64,000 nt of DNA from Longimicrobiales bacterium (GTDB lineage: Bacteria; Gemmatimonadota; Gemmatimonadetes; Longimicrobiales; Gaopeijiaceae), in the NCBI GenBank assembly GCA_965198065.1, contig CBDAON010000004.1, positions 1,312,001-1,376,000 on the forward strand, written 5' to 3'. Under the pieces are notes generated by a model. The model was given only the letters and a program-made list of their open reading frames with translations, was not told the DNA's origin and did not search any database. Positions 12,900-61,056 of this stretch are shown here, in pieces. Position 1 is the first letter of the stretch, and each line of letters starts with the position of its first letter. A program made the translations under genes and the position numbers.

Positions 12900-12973
<74 letters not shown>

Positions 12974-20111: not shown

Positions 20112-20160
20112 CGCGCTGGCACCCTTCCCGGAGGGATACATGGCCGGGAGCGACCCCGCC

Positions 20161-20397
20161 GGGGGCAGAGCGTGTGAAAACACGCACGCCCCCACGCCAT
20201 CACTAGGGCGTCCGCGGGCGGGGTCGCTCCCATATCCGCCTCATCGGCCCGTCTGGCCACGTCCGGCCGGGCAGCTGAGGCGTAAGACGCAGTGGCGTCG
20301 GCGCATATGCGGTGGGCCGCGTGTGAATCAGGGCCGGGCCATTCTGTGAATCGACCCCCCGCGTCGTTTTCACGTCCTAGTGGTGGCATGACACGCA
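20161..20397. other. Highly structured intergenic segment (candidate oriT, ssDNA signal or ncRNA)
   Basis: GCGTGT-GAAA-ACACGC hairpin; 15-bp long-range stem 20196-20210/20373-20387; nested GCCTCA/TGAGGC stem; repeated TGTGAA. Confidence 0.45.
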
Positions 20398-20403: not shown

Positions 20404-21338
20404 TCATCGGAAGTGCGCCCCGGAGAGGCGCACCGTTTGCCAGGTGCGGCCGGTGTGGATCGGCCCTCGGCCGCGCTGCCGACGTGCCTGCTTCGTCAGC
20501 GTGACGCTGCGTTTCAGGGCGGCTTGCAGGCCTCCGAACTCGTCGAGGATCTGGATCGCACCTTGAAGGATGGCGCGCTCGATGCGGTCGATCTCTTCAC
20601 GGATCCCGGCGTCCGGTTCGGCCGGGCCGGAGGCTTCTGCCCAGCCGCCGAGTATCGCCCGGGCCCGAGCAAACTCCTCGAGGGTGCGGACGACGGCCAC
20701 GACCTCGACGGATCGGCCGCGCTCGCTGAGCGCTTTCCAAAGGCCGCGGTGCGCTTCGCCCCAGGAGCGGAGCGCGGTCGTGGTATCGTGTCCGGGATCG
20801 ACGTAGACGAACACGGCGCGCTCGGCTTCGAGCGCGACCGGCAGCTTGACTGGGAAGTAACGCCGCGTGTTACCGGCCGCTCCGCGGTAGAGCCGCGAGG
20901 GCAGGATCCGGCGTTCGATGCCGAGCGCCTCGAATGCGCCGACCTTCTCGGACTCGGTCGGCAGCCACGGCAAGTCGGGATGCTCGAGCACGTAGTCGAG
21001 CGAGAGCAGGCGACGCATGAGCACCGCCTCGGAAGCGGCCCGGCGGTGGCGGATGTCCTCGGCGCCGAGCGCTCGGTAGATGCGCCGGCTGAAAATCCTG
21101 CACACGCGGCCGATGCCATTGATGCCGGGCACGGTCTCTTCGGTGGCCGCGCCTTGCGCGATCAGGGCGTGGACGCCGCGCCGCACCTGTTCGGGATGCG
21201 CATCGAGGAACCGGGACCACTGGGCGCGGATGAACACGCCGCTGTGGAGACAAGCCAGCGCGATCCATTCGGGGCCTGGCGTCCCGTCCAACCGAACGGC
21301 TCAAGGGCCGCTTCCCGTCCCCGCAGATGGGCGATCAC
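20404..21338 (-). CDS. wHTH-containing hypothetical ICE protein, frameshifted near 21272
   Basis: GTG start overlaps the virB8 stop; VIAHLRGREAALEPFGWTGRQA joins EWIALACLHSGVF across a homopolymer run. Confidence 0.65.
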
Positions 21339-30251: not shown

Positions 30252-31110
30252 CGGAGCGCTTCCGCGGCGTGAACCGCCAGGCAGCCCGCTTGTCGCCGAT
30301 CTGCAGCCACCCGTCGGCCAGTACGTGGCGGGCGACGTACAGCCCGTCATCCGTCAGATCGTAGGCCACGAGCGCCGGTTCCCCGTCCCGGAGCTCATAG
30401 AGCGCGGGCGACTCCTGTGCGTGGGACCTCAGATAGGTGAACTGCCCGTCGTGCCACATCGCCTCGACCAGGAACGGTCGGTCGGCCGCGTCCCCGTCGA
30501 GCCGGTACTCGAACGCGAGACGCTCCGGATAGGCGGCACGGAACTCCTCGATCGCCGACTCAGCCTGAGTCCGGGCCTCCAGGATGCTGGCCTCGGCCGC
30601 CTCCCGGGCACTCCGCGCGGCCTCGGCCGCCTCGGCGGCCATCTGTTGGTAGGCCGCGACCTCGCTCCGCGCGACGAACGCGGGACGGCCGCTGCCTCCA
30701 GAGAGCCGCGCCGCCTCTGCTCCGGACTCTACGCGAACGACCAGATGAGGCGGCCCGTCGCTGTGCTCGGCCACCAGGAACGAGTAGATCCGCCCCGACT
30801 CGCAGACGAGCGCGATGTTCGTCGCCGCGTCCGGCCGCAGGGGTTTCAGGAACGCGACGTTCGCGGCGCCCGCCAGATGCCAGTACTCCGAGTCGCCGAC
30901 CACGAAATCCAGGATGTTCTCATCGGCGGGGAGCACGATCACCGTCGTGTGACGGACCTGCGTCCGCAGCCGGTGGATGCGGTCCTCGCCCTCCTCCGGG
31001 ACCGGCACCCGGAGGAACGCTTGGTCGTCCTCCTGCTGGGCGGTAGCCCCGGCGGGGAGGGCAGCCAAGAGAAGGGCGGTTAGAACGAGGGGTGCCATTG
31101 GTGGTCGCAT
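29662..31110 (-). CDS. virB9: VirB9/TrbG; the recognisable domain ends near 30260 and the ORF then runs on into virB10
   Basis: Signal peptide, TTVIVLP, GDSEYW, FLKP, ATNI, WHDGQFTYL, PALY. Confidence 0.8.
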   Translation of the reverse strand: MRPPMAPLVLTALLLAALPAGATAQQEDDQAFLRVPVPEEGEDRIHRLRTQVRHTTVIVLPADENILDFVVGDSEYWHLAGAANVAFLKPLRPDAATNIALVCESGRIYSFLVAEHSDGPPHLVVRVESGAEAARLSGGSGRPAFVARSEVAAYQQMAAEAAEAARSAREAAEASILEARTQAESAIEEFRAAYPERLAFEYRLDGDAADRPFLVEAMWHDGQFTYLRSHAQESPALYELRDGEPALVAYDLTDDGLYVARHVLADGWLQIGDKRAAWRFTPRKRSDEPLEAVGPAPGRRAAGRHRDEGGRGVDRRARRWTAFLLGDDGSPGSRHSRSPARGAGCRRRDGEVAPGAHSARGRAADSGGRRTGARRARAPAGRCRRGDGPDPGRVPGAEHRCPRHRSGGVGASGGASAGGAGAKNTLAPHPSRGPVVPRSKRDSGVVRGWRPAHRRCGRRGCGVPREHGPSGARLLRAVRRDA

Positions 31111-31116
31111 GGCGTG

Positions 31117-32959
31117 TCAGCTCCTTGCGTTGGGGGTGGGGGTGGGGGTGGGATCGTCTCGGCTCGCGAGCACCTCGAGCGCCCGGCTGAGTCCGTGACG
31201 CTCGACGGCCCGGGCCCGCTCCTCGGCGTCCAATGCGGACGAGGTGTAGAGCCAGTAGCTCTCCGGATCGACCTCGAGCCGGAGCACCGCCGCCCCGTCC
31301 GGGCGGCGCAGGTAGAGCTCGCGTTTGGGGATCAGGCCCCGGACCTGGGCCAGCTCCGACTCGTTCAGCCGGAACAGCGCTCCGACCTCGTCGGGGAGCT
31401 CCGGGTTCGCGAGGAACAGCTTGGTCGGGATCGACTCGAGGAGCGCCGCCGCGCCCGGCGTGGCCGTGACGTCCACCGCGGACTGGGTGGCGAGGATCAG
31501 CGCGGCGTTCTTCTTCCGCCACGTCTTCGCCGCCTCGGCCAGGTAGCTAAGCACCGCCGGGTCCTGCAGGTAGCGCCAGGCTTCGTCCACCACCATCAGC
31601 TTCAGCCGCGTCGCCTCGGACGGATCCTCCACCTCGAGCCGCATCCGCTCGAGCAGATAGGAGAGTGCCGCGTCGCAGAGATCCGGATGCTCGACCGCAC
31701 CCGCCAGATCGATCACCTGCCAGTCGGCGAACTCGAGGTCCGGCGCCCCGCCCGCCGGGTTGTCGAAGTAGGCGCCCCACGCGCCGCCTTGGGTCCAGCG
31801 GCTCCATGCCGGCCACGTCGCGGACGGAAGCGAGCTTGCCAAGACGCTCAGCGTGCGCCGCTCCGGCTCGAACGCGTAGAGGTCCTCGATCCGCGCCCGG
31901 ATCTCGCTCGTATCCGCCCCGCTCGCTTCCCAACCGCCGAGCTTCAGGAGCCGGAGCACCCAGCCGGTCAGGAACTGGAACGTCCGCGTGCCCGCCGGCA
32001 GGGCGAACGGCTGAAGCCGGAGCGTCGGCTCCGCCTCCCCGGGCGAGAGCTCCAGGTAGCGGCCCCCGAGGAACCGGGTCAGCCAGCGGTAGGAGCCGCC
32101 CAGGTCCAGGATCAGGACGCGCGGGTCGTACCTGAGAGCTTCGACCAGCAGGAAGTTGAGCGTGAAGCTCTTCCCCGAGCCGGTCGCGCCGAGCATCAGC
32201 GTGTGGCCTACGTCGCCGGCAAACAGGTCGTAGTGGTACGCCGTACGCCACGGGGTCTCCAAGACCGCGAGCGACTCGCGACCGAGATGCTTGCTCTTTG
32301 CCGTGCCCCGGGGCGGCCCGAAGAGCGGCGCCAGGCTCGCCGCCACACCGGCCGACACGAACACCTTCCGCACCTGCCGCCCACGCGGCTGGGCCGGCAG
32401 CCGCGCGAACCAGGCCGGCAGCTGGCCGTAGCCCTCACGGATCACCTTCGCGGCGTGCGCGGCGAACAGCCGACGCAGGTCGCCGTCCACGCGTTCGATG
32501 CTTCCCAGCTCGCCGTGGAGGGCCACGGTCAGCGTGGCCTCGCCGTAGCTCACCCCGTCCGCTTCCAGCTCGACCAGCGCCTCGCCCAGCCGGTCGGACT
32601 CGGTCGCCGCGGCCGAGTCGACCATGGCGGCCGCCGTGCCCTCGGTCTCCTGCACATGCGCCATCATCGAGTAGCGCCTGGCGAAGTAGTGGCGCTGCGC
32701 GCCACGGATCCGGCGCCTCGCCGCCTCCATCGCCCACGGCCGCCACTCGAGCGAGACCGTCATCGCCGCGTCCAGGCAGTAGAGCTCCTGGAGCAGGTTG
32801 GCCCGGGCCTGCCCAGGCGGGGACAGAAGCGAGTACAGGATCACCGGCTGGCCGTCGAGGCGCAGGTGCCCTCGCTCCGCCTCGAGTTCCGAGAGGGCGA
32901 GCCGCCAGTTCATACCGCTCCCCGTCGCGCCGTCCCACACCGTGCCCGGACGGTTGATC
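31117..32959 (-). CDS. virB4: VirB4/TrbE ATPase, 3' part (gene split by element 2)
   Basis: GHTLMLGATGSGKS, DLGGSY, VVDEAW, RKKN, ATQS. Confidence 0.9.
32949..32959. repeat. att core, left end of element 2
   Basis: GACGGTTGATC, identical at 37251-37261. Confidence 0.85.
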
Positions 32960-33311
32960 TACTGTCTATCCTGTTGCTATTTCGTCATAAGTATATGACT
33001 TATAGTTATTTATGGATGTAGTAGTTTTTGGTCCGACTCGTTTATATCGTATGTGATCCCGTATAATTGGCGTGCGATTACACGGGAACCTACGGTACGT
33101 TCGCGGACCCCGTGACGGGTTCGACCTTCGGCGTCGCGCGGGGCTGAGAAAGACCACGCAGATGACGATGCCCCCCTGAGCGGCGGCCAGATCCGCAATG
33201 GACCAGAGCCCGCCCGCCAGTAAGACCATGAGAATCGCGACGTCGATGGCAAAGAGGGGGCGATTGTATACCCCGTGCACGTCACCGGAAGGCCAGTTAG
33301 CATGAGGACCC

Positions 33312-33500
33312 ATGGAGCACCCCCCAGGAGACCGCCAAGCCGCCAGCTTCGGACGATTCAGAGCCAGCGTGGGCGATCTAGAGGTCCACGGACGGCCATA
33401 CCCGAGAATGCAAATGCTGACCGTTCAAGAGATCCTAGACGGGAGGCGGTTCGACACGCCTAGCGTCGTGGGCCGTGGATCGTCTCAGACCGTCTTCGGG
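33312..33500 (+). pseudogene. C-terminal fragment resembling DNA methyltransferase/restriction fusion proteins
   Basis: YPRMQMLTVQEILDGRRFDTP motif with no upstream catalytic domain. Confidence 0.4.
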
Positions 33501-33987
33501 ATCGCAGACGGAAAGGCACAGCAAGTGCTCAAGATTGATGGACTAAGGCGGACCGGTCTCGCTATTGGGTCACGCAACCGGGAGACACCCACCCAGCGAA
33601 AGGCAGCGTGGCCGAGCTGATGCGGGCGCTTGCGAAGGAACTCGAGGTCCCCATCTACGTTGACGACACCAGGGAGACCCTCGCGCTGAGGCTCGCCCGG
33701 GCGAACCCCGAGCGCTGGAAGGAATTTATCACGGAGGAGCACCTAACCGAGTCTGGAGCTGCGGACTCGACACCCAGGAGTGGACCCCATGCTAAGCCCT
33801 GACTCCGGGCTGCAAAGCCCATAACTTGTTATCGCGAAGTTCTTCGCTAAGCTCCTCAATGTTGATGATGCGACGAGACCCAGCTACTTTTACCACACGG
33901 GCAGCTGCGGACCGGTGAGCCACGTCGCAGACAGTAGTTCCCGCACCCAGGTCTAGCGTCCTCCAACCTACGGAAGAAGGCTACACG

Positions 33988-34644
33988 ATGCGTCTCGCAC
34001 CTCATCTCCTCCAGCAGGTTTCTCCACTTTTCGCACTTGCGCTTTCCGTCAGCCTACTCGTCCCGGGAAGTGTCCAAGGGCAGACGAGCCTGTCACTCCA
34101 GGCCGGCGCCAGCCTCGCGACCCTCGGAGGGAGCGACGTAGACAGCGCTGATTCTCGAACCGGCATCAAAGTTCGGGCATCGGCTATCCTGCCACTTACG
34201 ACCAGCCTTGGTTTGCAGCTTGGGGCTGCCTATGCAGCAAAGGGCGCGACCGAGCAGGAAGATGGTGTGGATTTGGCGTTTGATCTCGACTACCTGGAGA
34301 TACCCCTGCTTCTGAGGCTCAGCCCTGCCGTCGCGGGCACCCTATCGCCGCACTTCACCATCGGCCCGACACTCTCCTTTCGGGTGGCCTGCAACGTGAG
34401 CGGAAAGGCAGAGGGCTTTGAGATTTCAGTTGACTGCGATGATGCAGAATTTGCGGACTTGAGCTTGAAGACGATTGACTTTGGGGCAGTGGCCGGTGCC
34501 GGTCTAGACATCGCAACGCCGGGTTCCCTGTCCGTGTCGTTGGATGTCCTCTACAACTTTGGTCTGGCGTCCATCTCCGAGTCGGACGATGTGAAGAATC
34601 GCGCGTTCTCGATCCTAGCGGGCATCACGTTCCCCATAGGATAG
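33988..34644 (+). CDS. Outer-membrane beta-barrel (porin family) cargo
   Basis: Signal peptide, LDYLEIPLLL, DFGAVAGAG, terminal GITF strand. Confidence 0.85.
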   Translation: MRLAPHLLQQVSPLFALALSVSLLVPGSVQGQTSLSLQAGASLATLGGSDVDSADSRTGIKVRASAILPLTTSLGLQLGAAYAAKGATEQEDGVDLAFDLDYLEIPLLLRLSPAVAGTLSPHFTIGPTLSFRVACNVSGKAEGFEISVDCDDAEFADLSLKTIDFGAVAGAGLDIATPGSLSVSLDVLYNFGLASISESDDVKNRAFSILAGITFPIG

Positions 34645-35539
34645 CAACCGAGTTCGAAACACAACCACGCCGTGTCGAACGGGCGAGCTGACGGTCGAGC
34701 TTACGAATGAGGCGCGACTAGGGCCACGACGATTGAGATGAGCCACTTCCGTCCCGTTTTCATTGAGCACTCCCCATTTGGCATTTGGGGCCTTGACACC
34801 CGGGACGTGGTAGTGCCGGGCCGTTTGTCGCCATGACCCGTTCTCCCGTCCGCATAACCCCCTTAACTGCCTCTTATGACTGCATAACTTGCGAGCCACT
34901 GAGCGCGTGTCAATATCGGAAACGGCTACTTATGGTAGTCGGTAAGTAACCGTTAACACCATCAAATTGTTGGACTTCGGTGGCTCCCTAACTCCGCTCC
35001 CCACGAGCGCGGGCCACCGCTATCCGGCGGCACCAACACACACGGCAGGAGAATGCAGGGATGCGGTGGACCCCGGCGTTGACAACACGAGTGTGTGGAG
35101 TGTCTATGGTAGGTTTGCTCGATGGCTGGCCGAGGGCTGATCGCCCGTGGCACGGCCTGGCAAACCGCACGACTCGCCCAGGTGCGCTTCCGATGAGAAG
35201 CCGACCCCTCACGCCACCACTGGGATGTGCAAGACACATCAGGGGTTGATGCACATATGGCCCCAGTCGTGATGTGCAGAAGCAGGGCTCGCTATCCTAT
35301 TGGGGCTGCGGCAGTTGCGCGCGGCGGCGCCCGCCCGGAGACCGCGAACGGGACAGCGCGCGGGTTAAGGGGAGCGACCCCCGGATTCGATGCCTCGATC
35401 GGCATCGCGGAGGGTTGGCATGTGCACACCCATGCCACCCTCCGCCGGGGGTCGCTCCCCTCCAGCAATCCCTAGCGGGAAGGCCATCAAGCGCCGCTGC
35501 GAGCGCGGCGTATCAACGAATCCGGCCGCCGGTCGCGGC

Positions 35540-35730
35540 TTTTCACCAGCTAGGTGGCTCGGCAAGTCGTCCCAGTGAGGTCGGCGTCGGCGCTCGACCA
35601 AGCCCGAAACTGCCCCGAGGTGGTTGAGGTTGCCGCCGATGCGCGCGACCTGCCGGCCGCGCTCGCACGCAAAGCGGCCGCCGGGGCAGTCCAGGTCCGC
35701 GTGCGCGCCATGGCCTGCCGGAGCGCGGGC
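35540..35730 (-). pseudogene. Decayed mobC-like gene
   Basis: RQVARIGGNLNHL resembles the MobC LxxIGxNLNQ motif. Confidence 0.55.
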
Positions 35731-35736
35731 GTCCAG

Positions 35737-35840
35737 GGGATCGAAGGGGGCGGAGCCACCCTCGCCAGCCCCTGCCGGGGACCCGCGAAGCGTGGCCACA
35801 AAGGGTAGGCTGGCTTAGGCACCGCTTAGGCACCGTAAGG
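35737..35840 (-). other. oriT-like block of element 2
   Basis: Reverse strand AGCCAGCCTACCCTTTGT...AGGGGCTGGCGAGGG..GCTCCGCCCC.TTCGATCCC as at 23249-23308; tandem GCTTAGGCACC x2 at 35813-35834. Confidence 0.5.
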
Positions 35841-35911
35841 TGTTCTCAGCCAGCTCTGCGGACGCCTCCGAAACGCCTCTCCGGGCACCGCCCGGAGCAG
35901 CGGGCCAAGGT

Positions 35912-37147
35912 CTATCTCTCGCCCGCGAGATAGGCCGCCCAATCGTCCATCAGCCGGCGCCTGCGCTCGAAGAGGTCCGAACGCGCATAGGCCGCTTCCA
36001 CCTTGTTGCGAACCGCATGGGCCAACGCGGCCTCGGCGACCTCACGCGGTGCGTTGGAACACTCGCCGCACCAGTCCCTGAAGCTCGAACGAAAGCCGTG
36101 CGGCACAGCCGCGATACCCAGGTCTCGAAGTAGCGTGGAGAGTCTGCTGCCGGGAAATGCGCGGCCCTCCGACGACGGGAAAACCAGACCGCTGCTGCCG
36201 CCGAGCGTCCGCGCCTCCTCGAGGATCTCCATGGCGCGCCCGGACAGCGGCACCCTGTGCGGGCGATGGGCTTTCGTGCGTTCGGCGGGAACCGTCCACT
36301 CCCGAGCCTCCAGGTCGATTTCATCCCACTGTGCCAAGCGAACCTCTCCCGAGCGGGCCGCCGTCAACACCAGGAACTCGAAGGCGAGTTTCGTGGCCGG
36401 GTAAGCGTGCGACTTCCGCACCATCTCCATCGCGCCCGCGACCTTCGAGTGAGGCAACGCGCGCATGTGCCGGATTACGGCTTGCTGTCGGCCAAGCGCT
36501 TGACCGAGCACATCGCTGGCGGGGTTGTCCGGCCGAAGCCCCATCGCCACCGCCCACTTCATCACCGCCCCGATGCGCTGGCGCACCCGCCGGGCCGTCA
36601 CCTGCTTGTCGTGCCAGATCGGTGTCAGAACCGCCAGAACGTCGGCTGTCGTTATCTCGCCGACCGGTCGATTGCCCAGCTGTGGGAATGCATAGACGCG
36701 CAGGCTCGAGACCCAGTCCTGCGCATGCCTGGGGCTGCGCCAGCCCGGCCGAAGCTGTTCCAGAACACGGGCGGCCGCCTCGGCGAACGTGGGCATGTCC
36801 CGGACCTTGTATCGCTCGGTACGCGGATCGCCGCCCGAGCGCGCGATCTTGCGGTTCATGAATGCCTTCTCGCGCGCCTCGGCCAGCGATACCAGCTGGT
36901 AGCCCCCGAGCCCCAGCGTGCGGTTTCGACCCTGGATCCGCAGACGCTGCTCCCATCGGCGCGCGCCGGATCGGTCCACGCGCAGATAGAGGCCGTTCCC
37001 ATCGCAGTAGTATCCGGGCTTGGCGCTGCGCACGAAGGCCGCGCTGAGTGCGTTGTGCGGCCGCCTGCCTCGGTGTTTGGGCAAATCCAATTCGGGAGTC
37101 CCCGTATAAAGTATCGTATGTTGTATACGGGAACATAGTGGACACAC
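35912..37147 (-). CDS. P4-like tyrosine integrase of element 2 (true start may be TTG at 37090)
   Basis: DGNGLYL, LTAARSGE, HRVPL, PHGFRSSFRDW, ALAH, AAYAR. Confidence 0.95.
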   Translation of the reverse strand: MCPLCSRIQHTILYTGTPELDLPKHRGRRPHNALSAAFVRSAKPGYYCDGNGLYLRVDRSGARRWEQRLRIQGRNRTLGLGGYQLVSLAEAREKAFMNRKIARSGGDPRTERYKVRDMPTFAEAAARVLEQLRPGWRSPRHAQDWVSSLRVYAFPQLGNRPVGEITTADVLAVLTPIWHDKQVTARRVRQRIGAVMKWAVAMGLRPDNPASDVLGQALGRQQAVIRHMRALPHSKVAGAMEMVRKSHAYPATKLAFEFLVLTAARSGEVRLAQWDEIDLEAREWTVPAERTKAHRPHRVPLSGRAMEILEEARTLGGSSGLVFPSSEGRAFPGSRLSTLLRDLGIAAVPHGFRSSFRDWCGECSNAPREVAEAALAHAVRNKVEAAYARSDLFERRRRLMDDWAAYLAGER

Positions 37148-37194
37148 AGCGACACTGCAACCGGGAGTATCCTACATAACTCACTGTGGTAACT

Positions 37195-37869
37195 CTAGTT
37201 ATATGATATTACTAGACATGTATGGATCGTATTGGAATCTATGTGTAGCAGACGGTTGATCAGCTCGGAGAGGAGACGGGAAGCTTCGGCGGGCTCGAGC
37301 ATCTCGATCGGCGTGTGCTCCTCCACGAGCGCCCGGCCCGCGTCCACCGTCGAGCGAAAGCGGGCAGCGGCGGCCTCGATCTCGGACCGCAGGTAGGTGG
37401 GCGCGCCCCCTCGGCGGCGCTTCCACCACTGCGTGAGCCGGGAGGCGCTACCCGATGTGGGCCCGTCTGCCACCGTCCGGAGACGGGGATCGTGCGACCA
37501 GACCAGGTAGGCCCCGAGCTGCTGCACCCGCCCGGCCAGAAACGCACTCCGCTTACGCTGCGAGACCGCTACGATGCCGGAACCCTCGTCGTCCGCGGCC
37601 TCGGGCGAGGCCGGGCGCCGGAGTAGATAGAAGTAGAGGCGCGTGTCGGCGTCCAACCCCGAAAGCAGACGCTGCCAGCGGCCCAGCACGCGGTCGATCT
37701 GCTCGGGCGAACGCCCATCGACCACCGCAGGCTCCAGCCGTCCGGCCGCGATCAACTCGCCGGACCGGGTCAGGCACGTGCGGCCGTCCTCGAGCCAACC
37801 CCAGTAGGGCAGCTCCTCGGCCAGCGAGCCGGCCGCCTCGTGGTCTCTGAGCTCAGCGGCGATCCTCAC
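37195..37869 (-). CDS. virB4: VirB4/TrbE, 5' part (truncated by element 2)
   Basis: GTG overlaps the virB3 stop; SLAEELPYWG...LSELINR, then reads into AT-rich element DNA to a stop. Confidence 0.85.
   Translation of the reverse strand: MRIAAELRDHEAAGSLAEELPYWGWLEDGRTCLTRSGELIAAGRLEPAVVDGRSPEQIDRVLGRWQRLLSGLDADTRLYFYLLRRPASPEAADDEGSGIVAVSQRKRSAFLAGRVQQLGAYLVWSHDPRLRTVADGPTSGSASRLTQWWKRRRGGAPTYLRSEIEAAAARFRSTVDAGRALVEEHTPIEMLEPAEASRLLSELINRLLHIDSNTIHTCLVISYN
37251..37261. repeat. att core, right end of element 2
   Basis: GACGGTTGATC. Confidence 0.85.
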
Positions 37870-38168
37870 CGCCCGCTCCGGATCACGAGATGCCACGGCT
37901 CTTCGGCCCACTTGCCCGGGTCGAAACGCGACGGGTAGCGCGTCCCGGCGCGGAGCACGCCAAGCATGTCCGGGTCCTTGCGGCCGGCCAGCCATCCGGC
38001 CCCAAAGCCGACCGCGAACACCACGCCGCCCGTCACGAGCGAAGCCGTCGCGTTCCACATCGCGAGCCCGAGCGTGGCGACGAGGAGAAACCCCCTACGC
38101 TCCACGCCCAGGATCGTGAGCGGACGGTTCAGCGCCGCATAACCGGCCCAGCGCCTCAGACCCCTCAT
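37866..38168 (-). CDS. virB3: VirB3/TrbD
   Basis: ALNRPLTILGVER, two TM segments, KDP motif. Confidence 0.85.
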   Translation of the reverse strand: MRGLRRWAGYAALNRPLTILGVERRGFLLVATLGLAMWNATASLVTGGVVFAVGFGAGWLAGRKDPDMLGVLRAGTRYPSRFDPGKWAEEPWHLVIRSGR

Positions 38169-38496: not shown

Positions 38497-38988
38497 TCAC
38501 TCGGCTTTGCCGCGGCTCAACGCGATCTGCTTGCGGATCCACTCGTCCACCTCCTCCTCGATCCAGCCGACAGCGCGCGCGCCTAGCTGGACGGGTCTGG
38601 GGAAGGACCCCTCGGCCAGCCGCACGTAGATCGTGCTCCGCCCGAGCCCCGTGCGAGCTTGCACGGCCGGGAGCCGCACGATGCGGATCGGCACCTCCAT
38701 TTCCTGCACCATGGTTCTCGTCATCTCTCTGCCTCTCCGTTCTCTCTGGGATGAATCCCGGAGCCGGTCGCTCCGGGAGGAAACAGGGTCCACACCGGCC
38801 TCGTCGAAGCCTTCCATGAACGCCAGGAGCTGATCGACCGTCGCGAGCGTCGGGGAGCGGCCATGGCGTAGCTCACGCACCAGGTTCGGATCGCCAACCG
38901 CCTGGCGGCCAAGCGTCGCCGGCCCCACTCCCGTGCGCTCGAGGAACGCCTCCACTCGCGCCATGAAAAGCCCCTTCAGCGTCTCCAT
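38497..38988 (-). CDS. AlpA-family regulator with an extra N-terminal HTH
   Basis: IVRLPAVQARTGLGRSTIY..FPRPVQLGARAVGW; N-terminal GPATLGRQAVGDPNLV HTH. Confidence 0.88.
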   Translation of the reverse strand: METLKGLFMARVEAFLERTGVGPATLGRQAVGDPNLVRELRHGRSPTLATVDQLLAFMEGFDEAGVDPVSSRSDRLRDSSQRERRGREMTRTMVQEMEVPIRIVRLPAVQARTGLGRSTIYVRLAEGSFPRPVQLGARAVGWIEEEVDEWIRKQIALSRGKAE

Positions 38989-42058: not shown

Positions 42059-42137
42059 CTAGGGTAGGGAGGAGTCCGAAGTGTCGAGGGCCTCTTCTCC
42101 GGCCCTAAGTCGGTCCAGATAGTCCGCCCATTCTTGG
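42059..42137 (-). pseudogene. 3' tail of a P4-like integrase gene (target of element 3)
   Basis: QEWADYLDRLRAGEEALDTSDSSLP* resembles the C-terminus of P4-type integrases. Confidence 0.6.
42111..42137. repeat. att core, left end of element 3
   Basis: CGGTCCAGATAGTCCGCCCATTCTTGG, 25/27 identical to 52127-52153; perfect IHF consensus at 42160-42172. Confidence 0.85.
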
Positions 42138-42216
42138 ATCAGCTGCGCCAATATCATTATAAACGATTGATTAAAATATACTTATCGTAAGCAAAACCGG
42201 AGGCTCACACACGGAG

Positions 42217-42777
42217 ATGGAACCGATGAAGAAGGCTCGCCGCAGTAAGAAGCTCCAGGAGGAACGAGCGCAACGAGCGGCCGGTATGGTTCTCATTGTA
42301 CTGTTCGGCTTGCTCGTAGTCCATGGCTGTACTCGCGGTGACGACCGCGAGATACAGGCCGCACTGGACCTCGAAGAGCAAGGAGATTTCGCCGAAGCCG
42401 CGCGCCTGTTTCGCGAGCTGGCCGATCAAGAGAATGCAGAGGCGCAGTACGCTCTCGGGTACAGGTATGATGCCGGTATCGGCGTCCTGGAAGACGACGC
42501 CGAGGCATTGCGCCTAATATCCTTGTCAGCTGCACAAGGGTTCGCCCCTGCTCAACGCTCCATCGCGCTTAGATACGCCACCGGGACAGGTGGCGTGGGT
42601 GAGAGGGACTTTGTACTCGCGCACATGTGGTTTAACCTGGCCTCGGTCAACGGAAGCGATTTTGCATTCGACGACAGGACCGACATCGAGCTGTCCCTGA
42701 CAGCCGACGAACTCGAACGCGCTCTGGAGCTTGCCCGTCGATGTCTGGACTCGGGCTATCAGGAATGCGGGCTGTAG
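42217..42777 (+). CDS. Sel1-like repeat protein with N-terminal membrane anchor
   Basis: AEAQYALGYRY..G.GV, AAAQG..AQ, AHMWFNLA. Confidence 0.85.
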   Translation: MEPMKKARRSKKLQEERAQRAAGMVLIVLFGLLVVHGCTRGDDREIQAALDLEEQGDFAEAARLFRELADQENAEAQYALGYRYDAGIGVLEDDAEALRLISLSAAQGFAPAQRSIALRYATGTGGVGERDFVLAHMWFNLASVNGSDFAFDDRTDIELSLTADELERALELARRCLDSGYQECGL

Positions 42778-43790
42778 AAATAGCCGATGTCCGACCTCGG
42801 GTTGGCTGGCGCTCTCTCCGACCCTAGAAAAGAGCACAAACCCGAAGGGGACCGGTGTCCCCTCGGGGTCTGCGATCATCGAAGCCCTGGCATGGCCTGG
42901 CGTGGCTCGGCAGGGCAAGGCAGGGCAAGTAAGACGGGACGCGGCAGCGTTCGACACGCTTCCCCCGCCCTACGGGATCGCTAGTCGAACAGACTCGGTG
43001 GGGCCGCCGCTTGGAGCTCCCCTCGGGGCGTGTCCCGGAATCGGTGGGCTGCGCGAAGAGCTCTAGCTGACGTGGCCTAATAGCTCCTGCCTGACCGGCT
43101 AGCCGCGTCCCCGTGGCGGATCACAAGATCGGCGCACGACTCGCACACGAGTCACTCGGCCCAAGCCGCGCCGCTCGGCCGAGGCTGCGGGGACGTGGTG
43201 AGTGGCCTCCGGTCGCGTCGCGGTCCCCGGGCCAATCTTCCCGTCGTCACGTTATCTCGGCATCCGTTCATCCGTTCGCGGCTAGGGAGAGCCCAGGGAA
43301 TCCGTTTCGCTCCGGTGGAAATAATGGTGGGAACAGCGCCACTCCTAAATCCGTAAAGCCTTTATAGTAAATGGATTAGTAGTGCGCGGAGAAACAGACA
43401 AAACGGCCTACGGCAGATCACTGATCGTTCCGATCCGACAACGCAGCCGAAGCGTCTCTCTGAACCGACCCGCATCGTCCAACCCGAATCAGGTTGGAAG
43501 AGAGTCCATGTCAGCGGCAGGCGTGAGTCAGGCCATGGCTTTGCGTTCATGCTCGGCCAGGATTCGGGGAGTGCCTCGGTTACCGAACTGTCCCGGATCG
43601 AACGCACTTCGATCGACCGTGATCGAGGCTTTCCTCAGGCCCTCCGGGAGAAGCTCGATCGGGCGCTGGCGGAGCCCGATCCGGCTGTGGGACGTGGTTG
43701 ACCTCCTGGAATCTCCCCTCTCTTGCCGTGCTTGACACTGCACGGAACCGGCTCCTCAATGTAGCTGGTATGGACACCCTGACGGCCCTG

Positions 43791-43945
43791 CACCGGCTGC
43801 CTCGAATCACGATCCGCGCAGGCCGCCGCCTTCGCACCGGGCATACCTCCGATGTTCTGATCCCTGGGCCCGGGACAGGCCATGGGACGACAAGAGACCG
43901 GCATGCGTTACCGAGCCCTCACTGCCGCCCTGCCGCAGGGCCAGA
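43791..43945 (+). pseudogene. Diverged copy of the virB10 3' end / trbJ 5' junction
   Basis: HRLPRITIRAGRRLRTGHTSDVLIPGPGT versus NRLPTITIRAGHRLRIWFTSDVLVPRPGT; nucleotide similarity continues into the trbJ start. Confidence 0.75.
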
Positions 43946-44100
43946 TGAACGCCTCCGTGGGCCGAGTACTCGCCTGTCAGGCCGTCGAGCAGGCGAACCG
44001 GATTTGCCGTGGTGGTCAACAATCCTGTGTGCCCAATCACATTTCGAACCGGCTTATATGAAACCGCATCTTTCCAGAGAGATTTATTCTTGCTCTTCGC

Positions 44101-44552
44101 ATCCTGGCCAAGGTCCCGCATCGCCTGCGCAAGCGTGTGGCGCGCGAGGTTGCCGCCGTCTTCCGGGCCCCCGGGCTCGCTAAGGCGAAGAAGCGCCTGG
44201 CCGAGATCACGGCGCGCTGGCACAACGAACTCCCCGAGGCAATGAGGGTGCTCGAGCGGGGCTTCACGGCCGCCATCCAGTTCTACGCGTTTCCCGAGCC
44301 CCACTGGGCCAGGCTACGCACCACGAACAGCCTCGAGCGCCTGCACACCGAGATCAAGCGTCGAATCCGGAGCGCCGGCGCCTTCCCTGACTGAGCCAGT
44401 GCACTCCGCCTCATCACCGCGGTTGCTCTGAGGACTACTGCGGTCTGGAGCGAGCGCCGTTACCTGGACCTCTCACTCCTCGAGCCCAAGGAGGTCGCCA
44501 AGGCAGCCTAACCGAAGCATCGAGGAGCTTCCTCTCACTTTTGGACTTGACC
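44101..44552 (+). mobile_element. IS256-family 3' remnant (nonsense codon at 44392)
   Basis: RTTNSLERLHTEIKRR; near-identical to 54471-54930 on the opposite strand; terminal GGACTTGACC. Confidence 0.88.
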
Positions 44553-44600
44553 CTCGAGGCTCGGTCCTTCGGCGGTTCTGCGACTCGACATCATGGTCCA

Positions 44601-45467
44601 TCAGACCGGTTGCAGGTTGACGAACTCCGTAAAGTCGTCCGTACCATCGGACTGGATCGCATACCGGAATCGGAGTTCATCTCTGTCGTCGCGACGCCTG
44701 GCATTCTTGATTGCGAGCACTTGAATGGCTGCGTAGAAGCCCCCCGTGTTGCGCAGTACGACGATTTGGCCGAGGGATGGTTTCCGAGAGCGAGACGTGT
44801 AGTCCAGCGACGCGGCACACTCCACCTGCGAGATCGACCTGCATCCGCAGGCCAGCCCGACGCCGTTGATGGACGGGGGATCGTTGTAAACATGAATCCT
44901 AGTGTCACTCGCACTAGACCACTTAGTTTCGAATTCCAGCACTCCAAAGCCGATGACGTAGCGCCCGTTGTAGCTGCTGTAGTCGAATACGACTTCGCCG
45001 GTCGGCGATGTCATTCTTGGCGGCGGTACCTGGGACGCTTTGCCGGCGAAGGGCTGGACGCCCAGTTTGTTGGCGATCATTGTCGCGAGTTGCGCGGGCG
45101 TGTGCTTCCGGGCGCATTCGTAGATGACGTCCGTCGGCAGACCGGGCACCCGCGTGTCATCGAAGCGAACGGGAAGGATGTACTCGTCCTTCTCCTCGAT
45201 CATGCGGCTAAGGGCCGACCGCCTTTCATGATTGGGCCAAGCCTTTGACACATAGGCTTCGGAAATGAACATTACGACGTAGGCGCTCTTTTCGGCGAAT
45301 GCTTCATGGAATGCTTCCGCGCCGCGCCGGCCCCAAAGACCGACCTTTTCGAAGCCGTCGTAGAAGACGTCGATGGATCGGCTCTGGAGATGCCGTGCGA
45401 CCTCTTCCACATAATCCCGCTGTTCCCCGGCAAAAGACAGCGCTACTTGATACTTCGGGCCGGTCAT
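44601..45467 (-). CDS. TIR-domain protein with a beta-rich C-terminal domain
   Basis: VALSFAGEQR, VFYD, FISEAY, WPNHE (putative catalytic E), ILPVRFD. Confidence 0.88.
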   Translation of the reverse strand: MTGPKYQVALSFAGEQRDYVEEVARHLQSRSIDVFYDGFEKVGLWGRRGAEAFHEAFAEKSAYVVMFISEAYVSKAWPNHERRSALSRMIEEKDEYILPVRFDDTRVPGLPTDVIYECARKHTPAQLATMIANKLGVQPFAGKASQVPPPRMTSPTGEVVFDYSSYNGRYVIGFGVLEFETKWSSASDTRIHVYNDPPSINGVGLACGCRSISQVECAASLDYTSRSRKPSLGQIVVLRNTGGFYAAIQVLAIKNARRRDDRDELRFRYAIQSDGTDDFTEFVNLQPV

Positions 45468-45656
45468 CGGACTCCCTCTCTACCGACCATTCGTCTGCGG
45501 CCGGGTCTGTCGAAGGGCTTCGCCGCCATTGCCCCTGGTTGGAAGGTAGCACGGCGCGTAGCGCGGAGCGCCATATCGTGCCACTCCCGATCAGCCGGTG
45601 AGGATAGGTGATCACCCGACCTTGCAGCTCCGGAGACATCCAGGTTACGCACCTGG

Positions 45657-45810
45657 TGAGTTGACGGGGCCGATTTGAGTTGAGCGGCCTCCGCTCCGGA
45701 TCGACTCGCGATCCGGAGGCCAGGTGAGATGAAGCTGAGCAAGGAGCAGGTGAGGGTGGCGAAGGGGCTGGCAGAGCGGGGCAGATCGGTGCGGAGGCTT
45801 GCTGGGAGAT
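45657..45810 (+). mobile_element. Short IS remnant (IS21-like left end)
   Basis: TGAGTTGA repeated; GGTGAG RBS, then MKLSKEQVRVAKGLAERGRSVRRLA HTH start that breaks off. Confidence 0.4.
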
Positions 45811-45998
45811 CTTCTCCTGGAATATGGACGGGTTGATGATCCCTAGGAGAACAGTTGGAGAAGAGCGGGGGCCAAGCTACGCGTAACGAAAGGCTGGGTG
45901 AGCGGTCCGTCGAACGGGGTGCCGGTCTGGGAACTGTACGTGTCCCACGCTGTAGAGCTAGCGATGCAGTTCAGACATCCACCAGGGATGCTCAGCAA

Positions 45999-47375
45999 AT
46001 GTCGAACGATGTGAATTCCCGCCTCTCCGATCTACTGGCCAACCTCCGTGAGTCCCCTGAAGTAGAAGTCAAGGGCTGGCTCGACCTGGAGAACAACAAC
46101 CAGCACAAGGCACGTCTCGCGAAGGCAACTCTTGCGTTGGCGAATCATGGTGGTGGCTGGGTTGTGTTGGGATTCAAGGAGGTTGATGGGACCATGGTGG
46201 AGGCTGAAGACTATCCAGCCACGCTCAACCCATATAACCAGGATCTGATCAACGGAATCGTTCGACGGTATTGCGAGCCAGAGTTTCATTGCACGGTGCA
46301 CCTGGTTCCGCATGGAGGCAAGATTTTTCCGGTGGTGGAGGTACCGGGTGGGCATGACGTTCCTGTGCGTGCCCGACGGGCAGGGGCCGATGAGAAGATT
46401 CTTCAGATGAATGCCATCTATATTCGCAAGCCGGGCCCTCGTAGCGAGCCACCGCAAAGCGGACAGGAATGGGACCGTCTCCTAGCTCGGTGCCTGAGCA
46501 ACCGAAGTGATGAACTGCTTGGCCATATTCAACGCATAGTGAGCGGGGCCGCGTCGCAAGAACGGCTTGCATCCGACAACGAGCGCCTTGATGAGTGGAT
46601 TACCACATGCTTCGATCGTTGGTCTTCACTGATCGATCAGTTACCGCCAGAAGCCATAGGGCCTAGGTTTTCATACGGCTGTTACAACTTCGCGTATGAG
46701 ATCGTGGGCGATGCGCGGGAGACTACGCTTGCCCAGCTACCGCATGTCTTGCAACGAAGCGTTGTCCACCTTACAGGATGGCCACCGTTTTGGTTTCCAA
46801 CACGAAAGGGAATCGCACCATACCCTGCGGATGGTGCCGTGGAATGCTGGATAGGCGGAGACACCGATGCAGAGCCGGGGGCACATGCTCCGGATGATTC
46901 GGATTTTTGGAGGATCAGTCTGGATGGATATGCCTTTTTGTTAAGAGGCTATCGCGAGGATCAAGGTGATCTGCAGTTCGCAGGGCAAGGAACCGCGGAG
47001 CCCGGAACGGTTTTCAGTGTCACAAAGCCGGTATGGCGCGTTGGCGAGACACTCCTGCAGGCCCAACGCCTAGCAGAGAATCTGTTCGAAGGCCCTACAA
47101 CAATTCGATTCTCTGCTAAGTACACTGGGCTCAAGGGACGATCATTGGTGAGAATAAATGGAGGAAGGCATATAATGAGAGGATTGATCTCCCGTCAAGA
47201 AGCAATCACCCCAAAAACTGTGACTATAGACTCAACGACTATCAGTACCAGTCTGCCTCAAATAGTTCATAGAATTTTGTCGCCACTATACGAGTTATTC
47301 AGTTTCTTTCAGCTCCCAATGGACCTAGTCGTGGAAGAGCTAGACTGTATGCGTAAGAGAGGCATTACTAGCTGA
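45999..47375 (+). CDS. Schlafen/AlbA_2-domain protein
   Basis: RESPEVEVK, ALANHGGGWVVLGFKE, IYIRKPGPRS. Confidence 0.85.
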   Translation: MSNDVNSRLSDLLANLRESPEVEVKGWLDLENNNQHKARLAKATLALANHGGGWVVLGFKEVDGTMVEAEDYPATLNPYNQDLINGIVRRYCEPEFHCTVHLVPHGGKIFPVVEVPGGHDVPVRARRAGADEKILQMNAIYIRKPGPRSEPPQSGQEWDRLLARCLSNRSDELLGHIQRIVSGAASQERLASDNERLDEWITTCFDRWSSLIDQLPPEAIGPRFSYGCYNFAYEIVGDARETTLAQLPHVLQRSVVHLTGWPPFWFPTRKGIAPYPADGAVECWIGGDTDAEPGAHAPDDSDFWRISLDGYAFLLRGYREDQGDLQFAGQGTAEPGTVFSVTKPVWRVGETLLQAQRLAENLFEGPTTIRFSAKYTGLKGRSLVRINGGRHIMRGLISRQEAITPKTVTIDSTTISTSLPQIVHRILSPLYELFSFFQLPMDLVVEELDCMRKRGITS

Positions 47376-47424
47376 TGAGAATACAAAAGAGGTTGCAATC
47401 CAAAGCTGATCCTGAGCGGTGGCC

Positions 47425-48456
47425 CTAGAGCGAGCGGTTCTCCTGGTCGAAGAACGTATCGCCATCGTACGAGGAGAGCTTGAACACTTCGAATCCGGAC
47501 TGGAGTAGCCCAAGTAACTTGGTCTTGGCTTCGCCTTCGCTCATAGAGTAGTTGACTACATGCTCGAGCTTCTCCCGCTCGACAGGCAAGTGCTCGACAG
47601 AAAGGTCTCGGAAAGTGTGCCAAAGGACGGAGAGAGCCTTGAGCACTTCAGAGGTGTGCCAGTCGAAGAGGATCGCGGCCTGCTCCTTAAGGTAGTCTCG
47701 CTCGAAGTACTGCTTGAACTGGGGCAAGGCCAGGTTGAAGTCGAGTTGAAAGTAGCCGTCGAACGAGTAATTCTCTTCGTTGCGATCCCGAGTTAGATGG
47801 TCGCGAGGGATGCCCCACGGGCTGTCGTCGTCGAGAAGGGGCTCTGGGAATACGAAAAAGGTGAGTTCAAGGGACTTGGGTAGACTCCGGTAGTCCTCCC
47901 ACACGTCTCGGTGGGCCCTGACCGGCTTTCGATCGAATTGAAGCGTCGCGCATGCCCCCGGAAGGTCAAGATCGAGGCGCATTCGATACGACTGCGCATT
48001 TTCGTGGAGACGTCGAGCTAGCTCTTCATTGAAATGGGGACTTCGTTCATGGAGTTGGTATGACTGCTTTCCCAGTAGCGTCGTGACTGACCGAGCCAGG
48101 TAGAACTTCGCGTAATACGTCGTGATGTTGAGCCAATGAAGCAGGCCGCCTTCCATCAAGTTGCGGGCTGCTATGTAGTTGTAGAACCCCTTGTAGAAGT
48201 GGAACAGCGCCTCATGGAGGATGATCGGACGAACCGCGACGAGCTCATCCCCTTCGAGCGAAAGCTCGATCCGCCCGTTGCTCGATGGCGTGTCATCGAG
48301 GCGTAACGCATCTCGTGTCGCCCTCGCCAGGTTCAGTTCACTTGGGCGTCTCGGCAGCTTTTTTGCAGGCCAGTAGTCGGTGTTGGCGTAGAAGCTTTGG
48401 AGATCATCTTTACTTGTCATGCGAGCCCTTAATTCAGACCACAGGTAACGCGCCAC
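47425..48456 (-). CDS. Hypothetical protein, HEPN-like
   Basis: YYAKFYLARS and RNEENY resemble HEPN-type motifs; start at 48456 or 48420. Confidence 0.6.
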   Translation of the reverse strand: MARYLWSELRARMTSKDDLQSFYANTDYWPAKKLPRRPSELNLARATRDALRLDDTPSSNGRIELSLEGDELVAVRPIILHEALFHFYKGFYNYIAARNLMEGGLLHWLNITTYYAKFYLARSVTTLLGKQSYQLHERSPHFNEELARRLHENAQSYRMRLDLDLPGACATLQFDRKPVRAHRDVWEDYRSLPKSLELTFFVFPEPLLDDDSPWGIPRDHLTRDRNEENYSFDGYFQLDFNLALPQFKQYFERDYLKEQAAILFDWHTSEVLKALSVLWHTFRDLSVEHLPVEREKLEHVVNYSMSEGEAKTKLLGLLQSGFEVFKLSSYDGDTFFDQENRSL

Positions 48457-48545
48457 TGTGCCGGCCAGGCATGTCCGCTAACGGATCTTGGCAGACGTGT
48501 CCGATTGTTGCACTTCAAACTTGATCTCAAGAGTCCTGCCGGCGA

Positions 48546-49370
48546 CTACAGGATGCTATCCATGATCCCGCGAGCAATGTCGAGAGACGCCTGGTCCCTG
48601 TCAGGCCACTGTGTGATCGGGATACCATCCTCTGGTAGCCCTTGCAGCTCGCCGAAAGGCGTGACGTTCCAATCACAAGCGCGCAGGACCACAGGAATAA
48701 CTCGAGCCGTGCCATCCCTGTGTCGGCGAAGAGCGATCTCACCTTCGACTTCGTAGCAATATCGAGATGCCAGAAAGTCAGGACTCATGAAAAGTAGGAT
48801 AACGTGAGCCTGCTCGATCCTCTCGTCGACCTCGGTTCGCCATTCGTCGCCCGCAGGAATCATCCGGTCGTGCCATTTCACGATCTCACCAAGGCGTTCG
48901 CGCACTACGAGTTGCAGCCGGACCACGTCCATTAGCGCTTCATCTTCATGCGTGTAGGAGAAGAAGATCTCGATGGGGCGTGCCGCAATGGGCGGCTGAG
49001 GGGCACCGCGCTGAGGAGGAGACGCCGCCAGTTGGCGCTCCGACGGCGGCGGATCGAGCGCTAGCAATCGGGTCGCGATAGCCCTGCAGCGCTCGGCCCC
49101 AGTGTGCCCCGGCCTGTAGGACTCAGCGTACTCGACCAGTTCACGGAGGATCTCCCCCACTAGCTGATCTGGCGCACGATCCCAGAAGCTTCGCATCCGG
49201 TTGGCCTTCGAGCCGCTATGCCCCTCAAGATACGGAGCACCGTCGATGTCGACGTCGAAGTCCCGGAAAAAGTCAGCAAACGTCCGGTCACTGAAGTTCA
49301 AGACGTAGCCGCCACCCATCTCGAGAAACTCTTCGAGGACATTCTTTTCCCGAAACCTCAGCGATGCCAT
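48546..49370 (-). CDS. TIR-domain protein with AbiJ-like N-terminal domain
   Basis: GGYVLNFSDRTF..GSKANRMR N-terminus; IFFSYTHED, WHDRMI, SPDFLASRYCYEVE, IPVVLR. Confidence 0.88.
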   Translation of the reverse strand: MASLRFREKNVLEEFLEMGGGYVLNFSDRTFADFFRDFDVDIDGAPYLEGHSGSKANRMRSFWDRAPDQLVGEILRELVEYAESYRPGHTGAERCRAIATRLLALDPPPSERQLAASPPQRGAPQPPIAARPIEIFFSYTHEDEALMDVVRLQLVVRERLGEIVKWHDRMIPAGDEWRTEVDERIEQAHVILLFMSPDFLASRYCYEVEGEIALRRHRDGTARVIPVVLRACDWNVTPFGELQGLPEDGIPITQWPDRDQASLDIARGIMDSIL

Positions 49371-49582
49371 GCGGCTCCAACCGTCTTCATGGGACTCCTA
49401 ACTTAAGATTGTGCCGTTCAAGGCATGTCTTCTAACGTTCAGAGGTTGCCAGCGCGGCTCCGTCCGCGCTTCACCGGAGCGAACGTAGTGAGCGAAGGCG
49501 GCAACCGCATTGTTATCGGACGGCGCCACCTGATAGCCAACCGCACCGAAAAAGTGCGCGCTGATCCCACAGGGATTCTCGC

Positions 49583-50022
49583 TCACCTGCGGCTGGGCCA
49601 GAAACGTCTATCTGGGAACACGCTCTCCAGACGCTCGATCAGCGCGTCGGCGGCTCTGCTGGGACTGGGATACGATTCTCCGCCCATGGTGAAGCCAGCG
49701 TTTAGCCGCAGGTCCAATTGCTCGGTACCGACCAGTTCGGGGTCGGCACCAAGCGAGAAGACATCAACAACGGAGTCTCCGATCACCGATAAGCGGACTT
49801 CGGCGAGGCTAGGCGGGTTGCCATTCACCACGGGTCTTCGCGCCGCCTCGCGCGGGAGCAGAACTGCGATAGCCGTCACTGTCGGGTCCCGATCTGGCAC
49901 TATCACGGTTCGCCGAATCGGACTTACTTCGAAGCGAGAGGAACGCCCTCTCGCGAAGAGCTCCGATCTAAGTTCCTCAAGCGCTGCCGCATTTATCACC
50001 AAGTCGGATGGGTCTCGAGCTA
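49583..50022 (-). pseudogene. 3' part of a hypothetical gene truncated by IS256
   Basis: Open frame begins at the IS end at 50023 with no convincing start. Confidence 0.4.
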
Positions 50023-50357
50023 GGATCAAAGGGTGTGTAAAAAGAGAGGCGACGTACCTTTGCGCTGAGATTTAAAGCAGCGAGCCCGGGTGACAGCCCG
50101 GGGAAAGGAACGTCGCCTCATGAGAGAGGATATCGCGGGAGCCCAGGGTGCGTCCAGCAGGCCGATGTGGGAGACGCTCGAGGGGATGGTTCGGGAGAAG
50201 GCGCAGGAGTTCATCCAACAGATCATGGAGGAGGAAGTGACGGAGTTGTTAGGCCGGGAGAAGTCAGAGCGCAGGAGTACGGTGGACTCGGCCGAGGGCT
50301 ACCGCAACGGATATGGCAAGCCGAGGCGGTTGGCGATGAGCTCGGGCACGATCACGC
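50023..50357 (+). mobile_element. IS256-family 5' remnant
   Basis: End GGATCAAAGGGTGTGTAAAAAG; EEEVTELLGREKSER..YRNGY..R. Confidence 0.85.
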
Positions 50358-50764
50358 CATGGACCGACAACGAATCCGAACACGAGACGAGAAAATCGCG
50401 GATCGATCCACGCACGAATCGACCTACTTTCGCCAGAGAGCATCCGGCGATGGGGAACCATGGCTGCGAGAGAGATGGTCTGCCATGCCGCCGATCAGCT
50501 AAGGGTCGCACTCGGCGATCTCAAGTTACATGCAGGACCGCTCCGGCTCAGATTCAGCGGTCGGGAAGTAAAGGTGACACCGGGGCTCCTCAGGTTCAGA
50601 TCCTTTCGACGGGGCCTGGGTCGGAAGGCTTCCCCGTCAAGCGGACCACGCATAGTTGGACTCCGGCGCTAGTGTTCGCGCGCGCTTTCTTCGCTCCACG
50701 GGGACGCTCGGGCGATTGATCTCTGCGGATATTAGTCGCGCCGTGTTGAGACAAAGACGGCAGA

Positions 50765-52000: not shown

Positions 52001-52006
52001 CCCCGC

Positions 52007-52035
52007 ATAATATAGGGGATGCAAGCGGATATCAA
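52007..52035 (-). promoter_or_regulatory. Sigma70-type promoter of integrase 3 (probably leaderless)
   Basis: TTGATA-17 bp-TATTAT, ATG 6 nt downstream. Confidence 0.7.
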
Positions 52036-52126
52036 TGGATGCTAAGTCGGAAGAATCCGCTAGGCTAGGTCAGTAACTCGTTGTTATAGAAGCTAGTTAT
52101 GGACTTAACTGGACGATACTGCACAC

Positions 52127-61035: not shown

Positions 61036-61056
61036 GAGCATCTTCGGGCTGGTTCC

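Follow-up and report, generated by a model that had tools for sequence, protein, structure and literature searches.

We analyzed a 64,000-nucleotide stretch of the genome of a Longimicrobiales bacterium (contig CBDAON010000004.1, positions 1,312,001 to 1,376,000), referred to here as the window. Within it a 4.3 kb element, element 2 (32949..37261), lies inside the virB4 gene of a larger integrative and conjugative element (ICE); two related integrase elements, elements 1 and 3, lie on either side. It is nearly certain that element 2 was inserted into virB4 at a fixed internal site. We further propose, with a probability of about two in three, that element 2 is a mobilizable satellite without a relaxase, whose excision would restore virB4 and which would then be transferred by the conjugation machinery of an ICE – a reading built from sequence comparisons. 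Coordinates of the relevant features are given in Table 1.

The original prediction placed an 11-bp attachment core inside virB4, and we found exact copies of this repeat, GACGGTTGATC, at 32949 and 37251; it cannot be extended on either side and itself represents virB4 codons 204-206. Joining 37869-37251 to 32948-31117 yields 2451 nt that begin with a GTG start, read LLSELINRPGTVWDG across the junction and encode the predicted 816 aa plus stop, with no internal stop. An alignment to look for missing or duplicated VirB4 sequence at the junction had been suggested, and none was found: the joined protein is identical to an intact paralog from the same genome (C4:465463-467907) at 769/816 positions (94%), without a gap at the junction, the sole gap being two residues at the far C-terminus. 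The C-terminal half matches VirB4/TrbE models (TIGR00929, E 3e-67, which for this half protein is below the curated cut-off), and the N-terminal half alone had no match to these models in the profile search. The GC content of the inner ends of element 2 is 34% and 41%, versus 72% in the virB4 halves. In the integrated state, the virB4 5' part reads into element 2 and meets a stop 18 codons on; precise exit of the element would restore the gene.

The 11-mer by itself is weak evidence for the element boundaries. The main contig holds seven exact copies, two of them away from element ends, and the repeat was absent from the top 20 families of a repeat finder. The insertion is instead established by the recurrence of the junction in other genomes and by the existence of empty alleles. 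Among 31 rows of uninterrupted virB4 from relatives, which include some loci fetched twice, the exact 11-mer is present in 15 and the 7-bp overlap within it in 26. The integrase-side virB4 junction occurs in 6/314 genomes of the family, from five genera – a lower bound, with two candidates scored per genome. For three elements of differing cargo, in L087 (9.4 kb), L259 (13.5 kb), and L261 (13 kb, with a truncated virB4 3' part), we observed both ends together with both virB4 parts. In L207 / L264 the virB4 5' part stops at the same core and is followed by unrelated DNA without element arms, possibly the scar of recombination with a secondary site. We also considered an escape allele, since next to the overlap the intact paralog reads GC where GA would be expected; this idea was weakened by variation of the base among empty alleles and by L261, which is filled with a GG host arm.

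The genome contains three near-complete copies of the host ICE type and many fragments. One near-complete copy has an intact virB4, and another holds an element that differs from element 2 solely by a single extra base in the integrase. Near-identity between the two filled copies is confined to ~31000-38000 (~7 kb), and further left they differ by ~20-100 positions per 500 bases. We rejected the idea that they are independent insertions, given the one-base difference within the ~7-kb near-identical tract, and treat them as a single insertion that either recombination or the assembler duplicated.

The predicted attP, AGCAGA-CGGTTGA-TCTACT, consists of a 7-bp overlap flanked by imperfect inverted repeats, the usual core geometry of tyrosine recombinases. 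The element 2 integrase matches PF13356 (the former DUF4102), PF22022, and PF00589, all above cut-off, and has the catalytic residues; it also matches PRK09692 below that model's cut-off. The integrase is 60-64% identical to those of elements 1 and 3 and falls on a separate branch (Shimodaira–Hasegawa-like approximate likelihood ratio test, SH-aLRT, 99) in a quick tree without bootstrap.

Both AT-rich inner ends of element 2 carry the two motifs named in the original prediction, TATCGTATGT and CCCGTATAA, each of which occurs exactly twice in the window and solely at these ends. The pentamer CGTAT occurs two and four times at the inner ends of element 2 and not at all in the four ends of elements 1 and 3. 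The predicted contrast with the repeats of elements 1 and 3 stands for CGTAT; it does not extend to ATCC/GGAT, which occurs three times in each end of element 2 versus one to seven times in the other ends. Over 15 right ends, 22/28 positions within CGTAT motifs are invariant versus 47/124 outside them, and over 10 left ends the corresponding values are 15/19 and 55/126. These patterns fit CGTAT motifs serving as arm-type sites of a separate integrase clade. The same motifs are present in sister elements (integrase 83–86% identical) that use other targets and overlaps. Since these motifs are shared by sisters that occupy virB11, a second virB4 site, and another integrase gene and that have different overlaps, the arm motifs do not set the target. 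The CGTAT motifs thus probably mark the recombination system, with the target changing with the core, and of the predicted independent integrase specificity the separate clade is borne out while the arm motifs prove common to sisters with other targets.

Within the sub-clade of integrases at least 94% identical, 5/9 integrase-proximal junctions found by integrase searches, duplicate copy left out, lie in virB4 and 4/9 elsewhere; virB4 targeting is a preference and is not absolute. Sisters split virB11 at codons 239-242 (L093, L094, and L263; overlap TGAGCGA), virB4 at codons 681-685 (L092; overlap CGTGGCG), and the integrase gene of another element (L091; overlap CGGATCA). In this genome, more remote relatives are inserted in virB8 (element 1, with a 19-bp repeat) and in virD4 (with a 20-bp repeat). 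Secondary sites are found in L088, L089, L095, at C4:1513900, and in a DUF1501 gene. Integrase orientation relative to the target gene is the same at the first virB4 site and virB11 and opposite in L092 and element 1. A metagenome scan returned 35 loci, none above 71% identity, and the best integrase matches in a plasmid collection were ~50% identical.

Several further arrangements were observed among these relatives. An element inserted in another satellite's integrase gene is also present at G000 C4:380407, and in L092 (9442-16528) two related elements interrupt a single virB4, one at codons 204-206 and the other at 681-685. In another ICE copy, virD4 is interrupted by a 14-kb integrase element (L254; G000 C4:2844908-2859261) that has a 20-bp repeat and an intact-looking mobC and MOBP relaxase. 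The DUF1501 gene is split between two contigs, with only three overlap bases matching. Ends of element-2-type elements also lie at non-ICE sites (G000 C4:1485985, L255; C1:10590, L257; C4:1513900, L256), and these are mispaired, suggesting rearrangement between elements. Sister cargo (L087, L088, L090, L092, L094, L096, and L131) is rich in surface and defence genes – TonB receptors, an FN3 protein, Sel1, a C5 methylase with Vsr, Mrr, and TIR.

Table 1. Features of element 2, the interrupted virB4, and the host ICE (positions in the window).
Feature	Position	Strand	Basis or remark
virB4 3' part (codons 207-816, ATPase domain)	31117..32948	-	open reading frame (ORF), join, profile match
Left junction: 11-bp repeat 32949-32959; overlap CGGTTGA 32951-32957; element-side core-type half-site TCTACT 32958-32963	32949..32963	+	predicted geometry
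Arm-like motifs TATCGTATGT (33045) and CCCGTATAA (33058)	33045..33066	+	sequence repeats
C-terminal remnant of ~550-aa N6/N4 DNA methyltransferase	33312..33620	+	PF01555 family proteins, <=92% identical over 73% of ORF
218-aa outer-membrane beta-barrel protein (cargo)	33988..34644	+	profile match
Last ~23 codons of ICE winged-helix gene o295b, captured with downstream region	35125..35196	+	homology to ICE backbone; frame read by eye
Captured ICE hairpin (17-bp perfect inverted repeat, arms 35368-35384 / 35445-35461) and ATCCC..GGGAAGG motif; candidate origin of transfer (oriT), GTGCAC repeat type	35368..35483	+	homology, fold
mobC remnant (RIGGNLN motif)	35614..35720	-	homology to sister mobC
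80-bp block, second oriT candidate	35736..35815	-	directly upstream of mobC-MOBP relaxase in sisters
Tyrosine integrase (Arm-DNA-bind_3, Phage_int_M, Phage_integrase)	35912..37090	-	R-K-HxxR-H-Y motifs; putative TTG start, frame open to 37147
Arm-like motifs CCCGTATAA (37101), TATCGTATGT (37112) and inverted copy 37123-37131	37101..37131	+	sequence repeats
Right junction: element-side half-site AGCAGA 37247-37252; overlap 37253-37259; 11-bp repeat 37251-37261	37247..37261	+	predicted geometry
virB4 5' part	37262..37869	-	join, paralog alignment
Host ICE hairpin and motif upstream of virD4 (TTCACA type, unlike element 2 copy)	20123..20231	-	pattern, homology
Host ICE o295b: 310-aa family, N-terminal winged helix; relaxase/relaxosome candidate; +2 frameshift near 5' end	20404..21335	-	fold, family comparison
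Element 1: integrase element related to element 2, in virB8 with a 19-bp repeat; join = 225 aa	21786..26795	.	repeat and join
Host ICE AlpA-domain gene, head of virB2-virB3-virB4; putative excision factor in trans	38497..38988	-	profile match

Element 2 encodes an integrase and has no relaxase or mating-pair genes. No relaxase was recognised within it; PF03432 matches lie elsewhere in the genome, and TrwC, MobA_MobL, and Replic_Relax gave no match genome-wide. Neither did AlpA match inside element 2, where 11 small ORFs without a Pfam match could still include an unrecognised factor. A promoter and terminator scan found none. Sisters L263 and L265 encode their own relaxase, and in L263 the order inside virB11 is integrase, 80-bp block, mobC, and MOBP relaxase. 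The other candidate origin is of ICE descent: 35124-35815 matches C4:2545408-2544755 by blastn, where tblastn places the C-terminus of o295b. The two-block cassette is 95-99% identical in 8/20 loci examined, partly chosen for this question. We consider both captured blocks putative oriTs, from their position, structure, and covariation.

The captured hairpin folds far better than shuffles (z = -8.6), and the 10-bp outer stem is fully complementary in 46/47 pattern hits among fetched loci, using a pattern that left three outer positions free, with several compensating variants. The pattern has seven sites in the genome versus none in three shuffles of the main contig, and the hairpin has no Rfam match. 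Its retention in Acidobacteriota ICEs (o295b 43% identical) and in satellites that lack a following virD4 means that it cannot act solely as a ribosome-binding signal.

The o295b family numbers 2380 representatives and has a confidently predicted fold (predicted local distance difference test, pLDDT, 92) with an N-terminal winged helix. The predicted recognition helix tracks the adjacent repeat type in 39 rows (HPEQ/TTCACA, HHER/TGCGCA, and RWxA/GTGCAC), a pattern to which kinship contributes. Exceptions are L171, L190, and L192, which are mixed, and L131 and four Acidobacteriota rows, which fall outside the three types. The GTGCAC-type hairpin of element 2 fits the other two ICE copies of the genome and not the window ICE, so one of those copies is the likely helper. 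The o295b homologs P0143, P0155, and P0198 are fused to ArdC/MPTase domains.

From these features we propose the following course of events. The integrase would act on the 7-bp overlap flanked by the half-sites AGCAGA and TCTACT, and the CGTAT repeats would be its arm sites. Element 2 may descend from an integrative and mobilizable element (IME) of int-oriT-mobC-relaxase layout that subsequently lost its relaxase and captured a second origin, the hairpin, from the region upstream of virD4 in an ICE. The two blocks would act as transfer origins read in trans, by the MOBP relaxase of a sister element and by ICE o295b. Excision would draw on a directionality factor from outside – the ICE AlpA gene is a candidate – and would be followed by transfer through an intact ICE and re-insertion into the virB4 of an ICE in the recipient. 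A more ambitious version, which we regard as tentative and rather improbable as a whole, is that these hyperparasitic satellites form a clade that moves among the transfer genes of a single ICE family through exchange of the 7-bp overlap, with the arm sites unchanged. Use of the ICE AlpA would time their excision to conjugation, and of their two origins one would be recognised by a relaxase family not yet described (o295b), its winged helix co-evolving with the repeats that it binds.

A number of results weigh against the mobilizable satellite. About half of the unbiased junctions lie at other sites. Integrase orientation varies among sisters, so coupling by operon read-through into the integrase is not general, and we ruled it out as a general trigger. 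Four complete sisters (L088, L092, L093, and L096) lack the hairpin, for which a role as virD4 RNA leader or as origin of replication is an alternative. The candidate relaxase has no Pfam or NCBIfam family and no PF13814 match; its profile versus three Replic_Relax proteins was not significant (probability 0.4%), and structure searches, the wide one run on the weaker model only, were dominated by the winged helix, with restriction-nuclease chains only at E 0.02-0.13. Assignment of o295b to Replic_Relax was not achieved. Among the matches listed from six public runs, whose contigs are too short to show absence, there was no attP joint or excised circle; cargo pieces were present, and two runs had loose ends of the empty site, which ICEs that were never occupied may account for. 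Finally, the window ICE is also damaged by the virB8 insertion and by the frameshift in o295b, and loss of element 2 would therefore not suffice to reactivate it.

The strongest rival is that ICE genes, dispensable to the cell, are simply a safe place in which loosely specific insertions survive, with no coupling to conjugation. The frequency of secondary sites is what this explanation would lead one to expect, and several ICE copies per genome enlarge the target. Loose specificity sits poorly with sub-clades of different overlap that each recur at one transfer-gene codon (virB4 204-206 in six genomes, virB11 239-242 at three loci), with the mobilization modules that the elements carry, and with the two exact 11-mers elsewhere in the genome that are unoccupied. 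We consider this explanation possible and well short of probable.

Somewhat less likely still is that element 2 is an immobile, decayed remainder of a relaxase-bearing IME that merely inactivates virB4. The mobC and methyltransferase fragments and the absence of a relaxase and of any AlpA are consistent with decay, as are the one-base integrase insertion in the twin copy and the ~7-kb near-identity, which suggests copying by recombination and not new integration. Against decay, element 2 retains an open integrase frame with its catalytic motifs, its two att ends, and its arm motifs, all intact, and the relaxase-less cassette remains 95-99% identical across genomes of several genera.

We think it improbable that the ICE or its host keeps element 2 as a domesticated switch that turns on conjugation by programmed excision. 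In favour of a switch, excision would be precise and in frame, and several transfer genes carry comparably reversible insertions; against it, most alleles are uninterrupted, occupancy is patchy, cargo and size vary (4 to >13 kb), element 2 has mobility remnants of its own, and the frameshift in the window ICE looks irreversible. An assembly artefact or chance repeat, which the break of the main contig inside the twin copy of element 2 might suggest, is refuted for the site, the two same-genome copies aside, by the same junctions in five other genomes with different cargo and by cargo contigs in public runs.

The host ICE adjoins tRNA-Ile (12900-12973) and contains a tyrosine integrase, ardC, virB11, virD4, virB8, virB6, a TrbJ-like gene, virB10, virB9, virB4, virB3, virB2, and the AlpA-domain gene. 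It is probably disabled by three lesions. Its o295b +2 frameshift, seen relative to the other ICE copies, may be real or an assembly error. The integrase of element 1 faces against the operon. Element 3 (42111-52149) has a ~23-bp imperfect repeat and carries two TIR_2 genes along with Schlafen AlbA_2 and Sel1 genes, a cargo that is likely defence-related. A ~460-bp repeat with many genomic copies abuts its right end, and a plasmid-type replication initiator gene (RPA, PF10134) lies at 60291-61136 among insertion sequence fragments.

Element 2 has counterparts among characterized mobile elements. Streptococcal IMEs with serine integrases split traG, maff2, and snf2 of Tn5252-superfamily ICEs (IME_Sco1050_traG_site1/2, IMESp2907 in maff2, and a tet(O) fragment in snf2; PMC5357655, PMC5704250), and their authors hypothesise that the IMEs excise on induction of conjugation and then use the ICE's type IV secretion system (PMC5357655, PMC5704250). 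Like these IMEs, element 2 is small and interrupts a conserved gene of an ICE at a set position within it, with several sites and genes used across the group. The streptococcal elements have a serine integrase and their own relaxase and reside in Firmicutes, whereas element 2 has a tyrosine integrase and no relaxase and resides in Gemmatimonadota. It splits virB4 – and its sisters virB11, virB8, and virD4 – of a VirB/VirD4-type system, while the tyrosine-integrase IMEs covered in PMC5357655 and PMC5704250 target tRNA genes, the ends of housekeeping genes, or oriT.

Relaxase-less islands with a helper-like oriT include MGIVflInd1 (PMC5704250), iOriTs (bioRxiv 10.64898/2026.01.13.699239), and those of PMC12084326. 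As in MGIVflInd1 and iOriTs, element 2 has its own tyrosine integrase and no relaxase, and its blocks, homologous to non-coding DNA of ICEs and IMEs, are candidate oriTs. Mobilizable genomic islands encode their own directionality factor, and PMC5704250 does not describe them inside helper transfer genes; element 2 has two origin candidates and no recognisable factor. The integrase resembles the IntSXT subgroup of arm-domain tyrosine recombinases, which includes those of P4, SXT, and epsilon15 (PMC8138268), in having N-terminal arm-binding (PF13356), core-binding, and catalytic domains. IntSXT clusters lie beside conserved host genes with one target each (PMC8138268), whereas the element 2 clade splits genes of another mobile element and switches target at 83-86% identity. 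Nesting, excision, and independent transfer have been demonstrated experimentally for Tn1806, nested in snf2 of ICESa2603-family ICEs (PMC12942858). In that case a streptococcal ICE is itself the guest, and it targets a gene other than virB4. Our literature search, which left out supplements and most subscription papers, where target tables could hold cases, found no report of tyrosine-integrase elements splitting virB4 or of the host ICE family.

The streptococcal studies left open how an element residing in an essential transfer gene spreads. The element 2 family offers a compact test case for this question, with natural empty and filled alleles and closely related integrases with different targets, and the sister integrases would provide a natural series for retargeting studies. 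The hairpin and o295b may constitute an unannotated relaxase-origin pair in an ICE family with no known relaxase in its backbone. More broadly, our results would add tyrosine integrases, and virB4 of a diderm system as a target, to what is known of ICE parasites that split genes, and suggest that an apparent lack of virB4 in some ICEs may reflect a reversible interruption.

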